A stretch of 20,765 nucleotides of DNA from a virus (taxonomy: Duplodnaviria > Heunggongvirae > Uroviricota > Caudoviricetes): IMG/VR virus record IMGVR_UViG_2703718852_000001; one strand, 5' to 3'. The position numbers were made by a program, and so were the translations under genes. Of the stretch, positions 6,067 through 9,063 are shown piece after piece. Position 1 is the stretch's first letter. Every line of letters starts with the position of its first letter. The notes beneath the pieces are model-generated. The model was not told the DNA's origin and did not search any database. It saw nothing but the letters and a program-made list of their open reading frames with translations.

Positions 6067-6134
6067 GAGACCCGGCGGGGGAGAAATCCCTCGCCACCTC
6101 TGATGTGGCAGGCATCCTCAACGCACCCGCACTT

Positions 6135-6165
6135 AACCCGCTTCGGCGGGTTTTTGTTTTTATTT
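6135..6165 (+). terminator. Intrinsic terminator after hokD
   Basis: Hairpin CCCGC-TTCG-GCGGG (6137-6150) followed by TTTTTGTTTTTATTTT. Confidence 0.6.
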
Positions 6166-6282
6166 TCAACGCGTTTGAAGTTCTGGACGGTGCCGGAATA
6201 GAATCAAAAATACTTAAGTAGCGCGCAGGGATAAGAGGGATGGTCCCTTAAAGGGGAGAGCTAATTATCCGGAAGGATTCTG

Positions 6283-6534
6283 ATGATGAACATCGAAGAA
6301 CTGCGTAAAATTTTTTGTGAAGATGGCCTCTATGCTGTGTGCGTTGAAAATGGAAATCTTGTTAGTCATTACCGCATTATGTGTTTGCGAAAGAATGGGG
6401 CTGCGTTAATTAATTTTGTGGATGCTCGGGTCACGGACGGATTTATCTTGCGCGAAGGTGAGTTTGTCACTTCATTACAGGCATTGAAAGAGATCGGAAT
6501 AAAAGCTGGCTTTTCTGCTTTTTCAGGAGAATAA
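6283..6534 (+). CDS. rem: Rem, small prophage protein, 83 aa
   Basis: Track ORF 6283..6534 (MMNIEELRKIFCEDGLYAVCVENGNLVSHYRIM...); GGAAGGA SD; synteny between hokD and ydfU as in Qin. Confidence 0.8.
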   Translation: MMNIEELRKIFCEDGLYAVCVENGNLVSHYRIMCLRKNGAALINFVDARVTDGFILREGEFVTSLQALKEIGIKAGFSAFSGE

Positions 6535-6600
6535 ACTCATCTACAATCTTGCGCGGGGCTGAACTCCCGCTGAGTAACACCGTGCCACCGGAGAAAACCG

Positions 6601-6879
6601 ATGGCACGCAACGCAAAATATTACAATTCTGATAATTCGCCCGTTCTTGCCTGCACGCACGGGCGGTATTCTCACGCATTCAAGTCTGAATGGTTCCAGC
6701 ACCCTCCATGCACTGCAGAACAGGCCGAATGGCTGATTCATTCTTACCGCAGGCGCGGGTTCGAGGTTAAGAAAGCTCTCAGTCTCGACTATCGGCACTG
6801 GATAATCTCTGTCAGGCTGCCTTATTCCGAACGCCCACCACGTGCGTCCCGCACTTTCCAGCAACGGATCTGGAGGTAA
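6601..6879 (+). CDS. Hypothetical protein, 92 aa, translationally coupled to ydfU
   Basis: Track ORF 6601..6879 with GGAG SD at 6590-6593 (7-nt spacing). Its TAA stop (6877-6879) is 1 nt before the ydfU GTG start and the ydfU GGAGG SD lies within its last codons. Cys/His-containing (..ACTHGRYSHAFKSEWFQHPPCTAEQ..). Not a gene I recognise. Confidence 0.5.
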   Translation: MARNAKYYNSDNSPVLACTHGRYSHAFKSEWFQHPPCTAEQAEWLIHSYRRRGFEVKKALSLDYRHWIISVRLPYSERPPRASRTFQQRIWR

Positions 6880-6880
6880 C

Positions 6881-7930
6881 GTGCGGGTATTACTTAGACC
6901 TGTTCTGGTGCCTGAGCTTGGGCTGGTGGTCCTTAAGCCGGGCCGTGAATCCATACAGATATTTCATAATCCTCGAGTGCTGGTGGAACCGGAACCAAAA
7001 AGCATGCGTAATCTGCCATCCGGAGTCGTTCCTGCCGTTCGCCAGCCGCTGGCGGAAGACAAAACATTGCTGCCGTTTTTTAGTAACGAACGGGTGATTC
7101 GTGCTGCTGGCGGCGTTGGCGCATTGTCCGACTGGCTATTACGTCATGTTACATCCTGCCAGTGGCCTAATGGCGATTACCATCACACTGAAACAGTCAT
7201 TCACCGTTATGGTACCGGCGCAATGGTGTTGTGCTGGCACTGCGACAACCAACTGCGTGACCAGACATCGGAATCACTGGAGCTGCTTGCTCAACAAAAT
7301 CTGACAGCATGGGTGATTGACGTCATCCGTCACGCAATAAGCGGTACGCAGGAGCGGGAATTATCTTTGGCTGAATTATCCTGGTGGGCGGTCTGCAATC
7401 AGGTGGTGGATGCACTACCTGAGGCTGTATCGCGTCGTTCGCTGGGATTACCAGCGGAAAAAATCTGCTCGGTGTACCGCGAAAGCGACATCGTACCGGG
7501 AGAGCAGACCGCCACCAGCATATTGAAACAACGCACAAAAAATCTTGCACCGTTGCCTTACGCCCACCAGCAACAAAAATCACCACAGGAAAAGACGGTG
7601 GTAAGCATCACCGTTGATCCAGAGTCTCCGGAATCTTTCATGAAGCTGCCTAAACGTCGCCGCTGGGTTAAGGAGAAATACACACGTTGGGTTAAGACAC
7701 AGCCGTGTGCTTGCTGCGGTATGCCAGCCGACGATCCGCATCATCTGATTGGTCACGGGCAGGGCGGAATGGGAACAAAAGCACATGATCTCTTTGTGTT
7801 GCCTTTGTGCAGAAAGCATCACAACGAGCTGCATACGGATACAGTGGCATTTGAAGATAAGTATGGCTCCCAACTGGAGCTGATATTTCGTTTTATCGAT
7901 CGCGCGCTGACAATTGGCGTACTGGCGTAA
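6881..7930 (+). CDS. ydfU: YdfU, DUF968 family protein with C-terminal Cys/His (HNH-like) motif, 349 aa from GTG 6881
   Basis: Track ORF 6842..7930. GTG at 6881 preceded by GGAGG (6872-6876) gives 349 aa. C-terminus ..CACCGMPADDPHHLIGHGQGG...LCRKHHNELH.. Alternative start GTG 6842. Confidence 0.8.
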   Translation: MRVLLRPVLVPELGLVVLKPGRESIQIFHNPRVLVEPEPKSMRNLPSGVVPAVRQPLAEDKTLLPFFSNERVIRAAGGVGALSDWLLRHVTSCQWPNGDYHHTETVIHRYGTGAMVLCWHCDNQLRDQTSESLELLAQQNLTAWVIDVIRHAISGTQERELSLAELSWWAVCNQVVDALPEAVSRRSLGLPAEKICSVYRESDIVPGEQTATSILKQRTKNLAPLPYAHQQQKSPQEKTVVSITVDPESPESFMKLPKRRRWVKEKYTRWVKTQPCACCGMPADDPHHLIGHGQGGMGTKAHDLFVLPLCRKHHNELHTDTVAFEDKYGSQLELIFRFIDRALTIGVLA

Positions 7931-7943
7931 GTGGAGAACGAGC

Positions 7944-8696
7944 ATGAACCTTGAAGCCTTACCAAAATATTACTCCCCAAAATCTCCAAAATTGAGCGAT
8001 GACGCTCCAGCGACAGGCACCGGTTGTTTAACAATTACGGATGTAATGGCAGCGCAGGGGATGGTGCAGTCGAAAGCACCACTTGGGTTGGCCTTATTTC
8101 TGGCAAAAGTTGGTGTTCAGGACCCTCAGTTTGCGATTGAAGGCCTGCTAAATTACGCGATGGCACTGGATAACCCGACATTGAACAAATTGAGTGAAGA
8201 AATCCGGTTACAGATTATTCCTTACCTCGTGAGTTTTGCCTTTGCTGATTACTCCAGGTCTGCGGCAAGTAAGGCTCGCTGTGAGCATTGTTCAGGTACG
8301 GGATTTTATAATGTATTGCGCGAAGTGGTGAAACACTACAGACGCGGGGAATCTGTAATCAAGGAAGAATGGGTGAAGGAACTATGTCAGCATTGCCATG
8401 GTAAGGGCGAAGCCAGCACAGCGTGCAGAGGGTGTAAGGGTAAAGGGATTGTTCTGGATGAAAAAAGAACCCGGTTTCATGGCGTACCGGTATATAAGAT
8501 TTGTGGGCGTTGTAATGGAAACCGGTTTAGTCGTTTACCGACCACGCTGGCACGACGTCATGTCCAGAAGCTGGTACCAGACCTGACCGATTATCAGTGG
8601 TATAAGGGGTATGCGGACGTCATTGGTAAACTGGTAACAAAGTGCTGGCAGGAAGAAGCATACGCGGAAGCGCAATTGAGGAAGGTGACGAGATAA
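7944..8696 (+). CDS. quuQ: Late-gene antiterminator Q homolog, 250 aa
   Basis: Track ORF 7914..8696; ATG at 7944 with GGAG SD (7933-7936) gives 250 aa. Cys-rich zinc-finger-like region (..CEHCSGTG..CQHCHGKGE..CRGCKGKG..CGRCNGN..). Immediately followed by a strong promoter and a terminator (pR'/tR' arrangement). Confidence 0.85.
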   Translation: MNLEALPKYYSPKSPKLSDDAPATGTGCLTITDVMAAQGMVQSKAPLGLALFLAKVGVQDPQFAIEGLLNYAMALDNPTLNKLSEEIRLQIIPYLVSFAFADYSRSAASKARCEHCSGTGFYNVLREVVKHYRRGESVIKEEWVKELCQHCHGKGEASTACRGCKGKGIVLDEKRTRFHGVPVYKICGRCNGNRFSRLPTTLARRHVQKLVPDLTDYQWYKGYADVIGKLVTKCWQEEAYAEAQLRKVTR

Positions 8697-8973: not shown

Positions 8974-9063
8974 TTATATTATTAGCAGAGCTATTACGGC
9001 CAAAGTACAGCATAAGCTTTTAAAGCCAATCAACCAGTCATCAAGACAGACGGGGTTATTCAT
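8974..9063 (-). CDS. Candidate 29-aa hydrophobic peptide ORF downstream of cspF
   Basis: Minus-strand ATG at 9063 preceded by GGAGAG (plus 9069-9074) with 5-nt spacer; translation [29 protein letters not shown], then tandem TAA stops. Below the ORF-track size cut-off. Confidence 0.25.

Follow-up and report, generated by a model that had tools for sequence, protein, structure and literature searches.

PHROG 1212 is an uncharacterised protein family of lambdoid phages, whose members include Gifsy-2 STM1021.1n, mEp237_051, PY54 ORF47 and phiES15_017. Here we describe a 92-amino-acid (aa) open reading frame (ORF) at 6601–6879 on the + strand of IMG/VR record IMGVR_UViG_2703718852_000001, and compare it with this family. 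The record is a stretch of 20,765 nucleotides (nt), which we call the window (position 1 is its first letter), and it is the Qin cryptic prophage of Escherichia coli K-12. Our analyses make it probable that the ORF is the Qin copy of PHROG 1212, a gene of the nin (delayed-early) region of lambdoid Enterobacterales phages, laid out for translational coupling to the nuclease gene that follows it. The Qin protein matches the core profile of the family over its full length (E=1.7e-35, 121.9 bits), with residues 27–92 covering profile positions 1–66 of 66.

The positional analogue of the ORF is NinE (PF05322; lambda ninE, DLP12 ninE b0548), also a small basic ORF in this slot. The gene order in DLP12 is ybcN (DUF1367)–ninE–ybcO–rusA–ylcG–quuD, and in mEp237 and phiES15 it is PHROG 1212 that fills the ninE slot. 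We considered homology with NinE and rejected it: scans of the ORF protein against Pfam (E≤1) and NCBIfam return no family, and a profile-to-sequence comparison with DLP12 NinE in hhalign gives a probability of 0.06%. For the arrangement of the two genes, the relevant known systems are translationally coupled pairs such as trpE–trpD and trpB–trpA.

The reading frame between rem and ydfU

Chance ORFs of ~92 aa are not unusual, and many of that size are listed in the ~20-kb window; we accept this one as real because it is conserved, and not because of its length. Three viral-contig scans gave ~220 loci, which reduce to 93 distinct nucleotide versions. In all 93, the homologous start codon is ATG or GTG and the frame is unbroken, and length variation among them is in-frame, with 6-nt insertions or deletions giving 90- or 92-aa forms. 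In each of the other five frames, between 14 and 93 of these versions contain stops. The ratio of nonsynonymous to synonymous substitution rates (dN/dS, pooled pairwise Nei–Gojobori) is 0.11 in codons 27–75 and 0.10 in codons 76–92, compared with 0.66 in codons 2–26. The synonymous rate itself is 0.21 in codons 76–92 vs 0.76 in the core, and this low value in the tail (6826–6879) could come from the overlap with the Shine–Dalgarno (SD) sequence of ydfU, from a predicted hairpin at the junction, or from recent shared ancestry of a tail-plus-ydfU module. There is no in-frame ATG, GTG or TTG alternative to ATG 6601, so the constrained core can be made only from that start, and the variable extension in front of it must be translated as well. 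On this comparative evidence, we regard ORF 6601–6879 as a genuine protein-coding gene whose core is under strong purifying selection. An antisense ORF of 137 aa (6541–6954, − strand) was also considered as a gene and was rejected as a shadow ORF, since only 19 of 90 versions leave it open.

The local geometry that the sequence-only reading had described is correct. The ORF lies in the 346-nt gap between rem (6283–6534) and ydfU (6881–7930, + strand), and runs from ATG 6601 to the TAA at 6877–6879. Its SD sequence, GGAG at 6590–6593 (+ strand), stands 7 nt before the ATG, and relatives have GGAG, AGAG or GAGG in the same place. The SD sequence of ydfU (GGAGG, 6872–6876) falls within codons 91–92 of the ORF, and a single nucleotide, C 6880, separates the TAA from the ydfU GTG at 6881. 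The encoded protein is strongly basic (16 K/R vs 7 D/E). Three parts can be told apart on the + strand: codons 1–26 (6601–6678) form a clade-specific, variable and basic N-terminal extension that is predicted to be disordered, codons 27–75 (6679–6825) the conserved core domain with a predicted strand–helix–strand–strand order, and codons 76–92 (6826–6876) a conserved C-terminal tail that is rich in Pro and Arg and ends in W-R, and whose last two codons are also the ribosome-binding site of ydfU.

Relatives outside the Qin-type clade are shorter (65–68 aa), and their start aligns with residue 26 or 27 of the Qin protein. These short forms occur in phages of Salmonella (Gifsy-2), Klebsiella, Citrobacter, Cronobacter, Yersinia (PY54), Edwardsiella, Erwinia and Hafnia, and the named 66-aa relatives are those of Gifsy-2, mEp237, PY54, phiES15, GF-2, Eho59, Pocitis76 and Klebsiella phages. 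The extension of 24–26 codons is absent from the 66-aa relatives, and has its own start and SD-like purine tract. The ancestral form is ~66 aa long and present in lambdoid phages of many enterobacteria, and the Qin clade added its N-terminal extension to it. The family has few members: searching 1.84 billion representatives with HMMER yielded 100 proteins, mostly of ~50–110 aa, and the ten longer or divergent matches that we inspected include chimeras and no informative domain fusion. Across genera (14 sequences, with distant members at 36–47% identity), the invariant residues are W31, T38, Y49, D63, L73 and W91.

An AlphaFold2 model, built on a 47-sequence alignment, predicts a confident core, with mean predicted local distance difference test scores (pLDDT, in 10-residue blocks) above 90 across residues 31–70. 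Its elements are a strand at 28–33, a helix at 39–52, and strands at 55–60 and 67–75. The ends are less certain, with pLDDT below 50 in residues 1–21, as in a disordered N-terminus, and a less confident tail. In a Foldseek search of BFVD, the sole near-significant match is Orf QD1 of Ravinvirus N15 (UniProt O21966, 142 aa; E=1.4e-3, probability 1.00, 28% identity over 75 columns). N15 is a relative of PY54, which carries a PHROG 1212 member. Orf QD1 is longer than the ORF protein and likewise uncharacterised, and adds nothing on function. A profile search of PDB sequences gave chance-level matches only (E≥0.036), and PADLOC profiles (E≤0.1) contain no family for the ORF protein or for a short-form relative. 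No fold or sequence match points to a function.

The ORF had been called unrecognised. This holds for the MG1655 record (NC_000913.3), which has no feature between rem and ydfU, and fails elsewhere: besides the PHROG 1212 assignment, the Prokaryotic Genome Annotation Pipeline (PGAP) calls the same coordinates in K-12 derivatives as WP_012304870.1, a hypothetical protein. Among 5426 complete E. coli genomes, 4530 match the DNA of the ORF and its flanks (6535–6900), often at several places, and a "hypothetical protein" annotation was found under the match in sampled genomes. The identical protein is on more than 1000 contigs, labelled "hypothetical protein" or "Prophage protein". Our literature searches found no paper that mentions the ORF or its protein, and the peptide is absent from the supplements on novel small genes of enterohaemorrhagic E. 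coli Sakai. In kind, then, the ORF is unremarkable, being a small phage gene of the nin region that has been catalogued before and has no known function. However, MG1655 is the reference annotation for bacterial genetics, and the absence of a conserved, selected gene from it is worth fixing.

Two further annotations concern small genes in or near this region. Phage records ON470583.1 (3001–3279) and ON470619.1 name the homologue "toxin to Rem", for which we found no support, and the label looks as if it was carried over from the annotation of the neighbouring gene. A 29-codon ORF beside cspF (8974–9063, − strand) is ynfS (b4750) in MG1655 and a hypothetical protein in PGAP; small Qin ORFs have thus entered the reference before, and the 92-aa ORF did not.

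Gene order and the junction with the nuclease gene

The annotated genes of the window are flxA, ydfV, relB, relE, hokD, rem, ydfU, the Q homologue ydfT, ynfS and cspF. Downstream of the ORF, ydfU encodes a His-Me-finger (HNH-type) nuclease (Pfam DUF968, E=2.6e-76; PHROG 96, "HNH endonuclease"), and its position makes it the downstream cistron of the putative coupled pair. The His-Me-finger nucleases include DUF968, DUF1364 and NinG alike, and a role in recombination has been suggested for all three (PMC5714182). Of the ~90 long-form versions that could be evaluated, ~87 have ydfU immediately after the ORF, and at least 90 of the 93 carry the junction TGGAGGTAACGTG. The coupled layout proposed from the Qin sequence is therefore real and nearly invariant.

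It also extends to the rest of the family, whichever nuclease follows. We located the short-form gene in 43 loci, 34 of them from a scan of one genome per species, 7 from phage records and 2 from contigs; the scan itself had given 35 loci, mostly in distinct enterobacterial species. The upstream neighbour is DUF1367 in 38 of the 43 and NinB-like in 2, and the next nuclease gene on the 3' side is NinG in 25 and YbcO (DUF1364) in 13. A 2-nt spacer follows TGGGGGTGA (...TGG-GGG-TGA) in all but a few of the NinG and YbcO loci, and the TGGGGGTGA-NN-ATG junction is found in most of the 43. The remaining loci are varied. In Hafnia Pocitis76, NinG lies 180 nt downstream with a 59-aa ORF in between, in three further loci the short form is followed by YbcO/DUF968-like proteins that fall below the Pfam threshold, and in PY54 and Erwinia Eho59 other genes stand downstream. 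The antiterminator gene Q comes further downstream in family loci, as in Qin, where ydfU (DUF968) is followed by the Q homologue ydfT.

Throughout the family, the small gene ends in TGG-AGG-TAA or TGG-GGG-TGA. Its last two sense codons and the stop make up the SD sequence of the nuclease gene, with the nuclease start 1–2 nt later, and this role accounts for the invariant terminal Trp. A very stable junction is thus found within otherwise mosaic lambdoid phages, in which the last two codons of a small gene double as the ribosome-binding site for three nuclease families. Together with a covarying hairpin at the ORF start (below), this reuse is the small new observation of our study, and the conserved junction offers a handle for studying how the expression of NinG, YbcO and YdfU is set.

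The upstream side is different. The sequence-only reading had suggested that rem may share an operon with the ORF, yet rem is no fixed partner, being upstream in only ~26 of the 93 versions, with hok, a dcm-type methylase or other genes in the remainder. In Qin, the upstream half of the nin-region position differs from that of the family, with rem in place of DUF1367, and throughout the E. coli clade that includes Qin the usual DUF1367/NinB-like gene has given way to variable cargo such as rem, hok or dcm. The slot 5' of the ORF–ydfU pair (for example in L155, L151, L163 and L225, among others) holds rem, hok-type toxins, a dcm-like cytosine methylase and unknown ORFs, and it behaves as an insertion hot spot.

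Some details of the flanking genes are given here for completeness. The ydfU start at 6881 agrees with both annotations (PGAP and NC_000913.3). If translation began at an in-frame GTG at 6842–6844 (+ strand), 39 nt 5' of that start, YdfU would be 362 aa long and its gene would overlap the end of the ORF; we favour 6881, which is preceded by GGAGG and on which both annotations agree. For ydfT, the longest ORF begins at TTG 7914 (+ strand, 260 aa) and overlaps the end of ydfU, and the RefSeq start is at 7944 (250 aa). The product of rem has no Pfam family and matches PHROG 340 (unknown function; E=4.4e-21). Its score against the SocB toxin model (14.9 bits, cut-off 210) is far below threshold and is not evidence.

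Rho-dependent termination and predicted RNA structure

It had been proposed from the sequence that rem, the ORF, ydfU and Q may be read as one operon with no terminator in between. The part about intrinsic terminators stands: our scan, which detects the hokD terminator at 6135–6152, finds none between rem and the ORF. On the other hand, a terminator upstream of ydfU has been classed by reverse-transcription quantitative PCR among the strongest Rho-dependent ones (PMC9160355). On arrays, ydfU RNA increased by log2 +1.4 to +2.8 in nusG and rho mutants and with bicyclomycin, and rem stayed near 0 (PMC9160355). Because ydfU rises and rem is flat, a zone of Rho-dependent termination lies between rem and the ydfU probe; exact stop sites within rem..ydfU were not reported (PMC9160355). 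An unimpeded rem–ORF–ydfU–Q operon conflicts with these published data.

The base composition of the region is consistent with such a zone. In 70-nt windows from 6515 to 6865, C minus G ranges from −0.01 to +0.17 and is positive in all but one, compared with −0.10 to −0.19 across most of rem. Being C-rich and G-poor, unlike rem, the ORF region is a plausible Rho loading region. Strong Rho action would in turn mean that translation of the ORF and of ydfU is weak in K-12, which fits the occluded start described next. The presence of the ORF changes how the rem–ydfU "intergenic" region and its Rho-dependent terminator are to be read. A promoter-like site is also found at 6520–6547 (+ strand; TTTTCA, 16 nt, TACAAT, 9 of 12 matches), overlapping the end of rem ~55 nt before the ORF start; if active, it would give an ORF–ydfU transcript independent of rem.

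A predicted hairpin (6581–6608, + strand) spans the translation start of the ORF, with its 5' arm at 6581–6587, its 3' arm at 6602–6608 and the GGAG in the inner stem and loop, so that the start codon and the next four bases (codon 2 and the first base of codon 3) pair with the upstream arm. In the window, it folds at −16.4 kcal/mol (z=−5.3), and none of 200 shuffles folds as well. All common 5' sequence types that we folded form the same helix, including the GTG-start type with unrelated sequence. Among 34 distinct sequences, the 7-bp start helix is paired in 98.3% of cells, with three pairs changed on both sides, and the whole start structure (both helices) is 89.2% paired vs 13–42% when the 3' partners are slid by 1–3 columns. 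The start hairpin is kept by compensatory changes, with a clear signal despite the small number of independent events. Its pairing would also explain why the protein starts with a conserved M-A-(R/H/Q), codon 3 always having C as its first base.

A further hairpin is predicted at the junction (6848–6887, + strand), in which the ydfU SD sequence (6872–6876) and GTG (6881–6883) pair with ORF codons 83–87. It folds at −19.3 kcal/mol (z=−2.9, with 1 of 200 shuffles folding as well), and its sequence is 96% conserved. A search of 6100–7100 with the covariance models of Rfam 15 gave no match at E≤1.

Weighing the readings and comparison with known systems

We favour the reading given at the outset, that the ORF is the Qin copy of PHROG 1212 in coupled layout with a nuclease gene. 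Under this reading, ribosomes that finish the ORF would deliver or expose the ydfU start, so that ydfU translation would depend on the ORF, and the start hairpin of the Qin-type clade would throttle ribosome entry and keep initiation low. In an intact phage, the ORF–nuclease block would be read from pR under antitermination. In K-12, where antitermination is missing, poor translation of the C-rich stretch would let Rho stop transcription in or just after the ORF, and such a stop agrees with published data in which Rho silences ydfU and leaves rem unaffected. The protein itself might be a basic nucleic-acid-binding accessory of the NinR recombination/nuclease module, which is a guess on our part.

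Several observations weigh against this account. We did not find direct evidence for translation of the ORF in K-12, and a Ribo-RET (ribosome profiling) supplement on novel E. coli ORFs, whose coverage we left unchecked, has no entry near coordinates 16445xx. Absence from that table would be expected anyway for a transcriptionally silenced prophage gene, and is weak negative evidence. The junction hairpin shows no two-sided pair changes and no excess of covariation over the shuffle control, and the equivalent junctions in three short-form loci have no significant fold; conservation of this hairpin can be explained by coding and SD constraints. In addition, protein identity follows the type of nuclease only weakly (mean 0.69 for the same type vs 0.62 for different types), and near-identical copies stand before NinG and YbcO, which speaks against a partnership with one particular nuclease.

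This last point bears on a possible role of the protein as a dedicated partner to the His-Me nuclease encoded after it (an inhibitor, chaperone or DNA-targeting subunit), with the linkage serving synthesis in fixed proportion. In favour of such a role, a His-Me nuclease gene comes immediately next in ~40 of the 43 short-form loci and in ~87 of the 90 long-form versions, and the protein is basic, with a conserved unstructured tail that could be a binding peptide. However, three nuclease families follow near-identical copies (for example, L262 stands before NinG and L263 before YbcO), the nuclease type agrees between a copy and its nearest neighbour in 23 of 35 cases vs a chance expectation of 0.44, and PY54 and Erwinia Eho59 have other genes downstream. 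Given the weak tracking and the near-identical copies before different nucleases, the junction acts like a boundary for recombination. The data do not favour a partnership specific to one nuclease, and we consider a dedicated partner unlikely. It is very unlikely that the ORF is a leader cistron, in which only the act of translation matters (by loading ribosomes for ydfU or shielding the RNA from Rho) and the peptide has no function. The ydfU SD sequence inside the ORF, the hairpin predicted over the ydfU start and the variability of the extension (dN/dS 0.66) would all suit such a leader, but a pure leader would not conserve its amino-acid sequence, and here the core has a dN/dS of 0.11, a confident predicted fold and residues that are invariant across genera at 36–47% identity.

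The Cys/His residues to which the sequence-only reading drew attention (C-x-H...H-P-P-C) are present in the Qin copy, and within the 47-sequence set H34 is invariant and C37 nearly so, which is what a zinc-binding regulatory protein would need. The pattern is nevertheless no conserved motif. C18, H20 and H25 lie in the variable extension, where C18 is Ser in most E. coli relatives and the two His residues vary, and the 66-aa form has none of the three; the PY54, GF-2 and Hafnia copies have Met in place of C37, and two of these have Gln in place of H34. Four conserved Cys/His ligands, as in a zinc finger or zinc ribbon, are not found, the AlphaFold2 model has no metal-site geometry, and we hold zinc binding to be highly improbable. 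We give scarcely any credence to a chance ORF in a non-coding spacer, or to a frameshifted or extended piece of ydfU. The absence of the ORF from the curated MG1655 record and the in-frame GTG 6842 that could extend ydfU speak for these, and the conserved start and frame and the dN/dS values against them. Membership of ydfU, which had been named as the finding that would overturn a separate gene, was rejected: the two frames differ, relatives of the ORF stand upstream of NinG or YbcO, and no fusion protein of ~440 aa occurs among 129, 523 or 100 homologues.

A bolder version of the favoured reading can be formulated, in which the PHROG 1212 protein and the nin His-Me nuclease are one unit, where the protein would bind either the nuclease or nucleic acid that is branched or single-stranded, and would set the time and place of cutting by the nuclease, and in which the Qin-type start hairpin and the junction form a translational relay that gates the nuclease and, via Rho polarity, Q. 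We regard the two parts taken jointly as rather improbable. If true, they would amount to a control point, not described before, at the passage from early to late gene expression of the phage. The biological stakes are modest, because the function of the protein is unknown and the gene is silent in K-12.

Compared with known systems, the locus resembles the Rho-dependent terminators that silence K-12 prophage genes (PMC9160355) in lying between the Rho-insensitive rem and the Rho-sensitive ydfU and in being C-rich and G-poor. It differs in that the termination zone would coincide with conserved coding sequence and not with a leader, with points that are not mapped to the ORF (PMC9160355). Like coupled pairs, it has the ydfU SD sequence inside the ORF, a stop and start 1–2 nt apart, a weak GTG start and a predicted stem over that start. 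Unlike trpE–trpD and trpB–trpA, its coupling is predicted from sequence layout, and the predicted stem lacks covariation support. With respect to the short forms of PHROG 1212, the Qin type differs in its extension of 24–26 residues with its own SD sequence, start and start-site hairpin; it also follows variable cargo rather than DUF1367, and precedes DUF968 rather than NinG or YbcO. What it shares with the members of PHROG 1212 is the nin position directly before a His-Me nuclease gene, Q downstream, and a junction in which the SD sequence lies in the last codons of the small gene.

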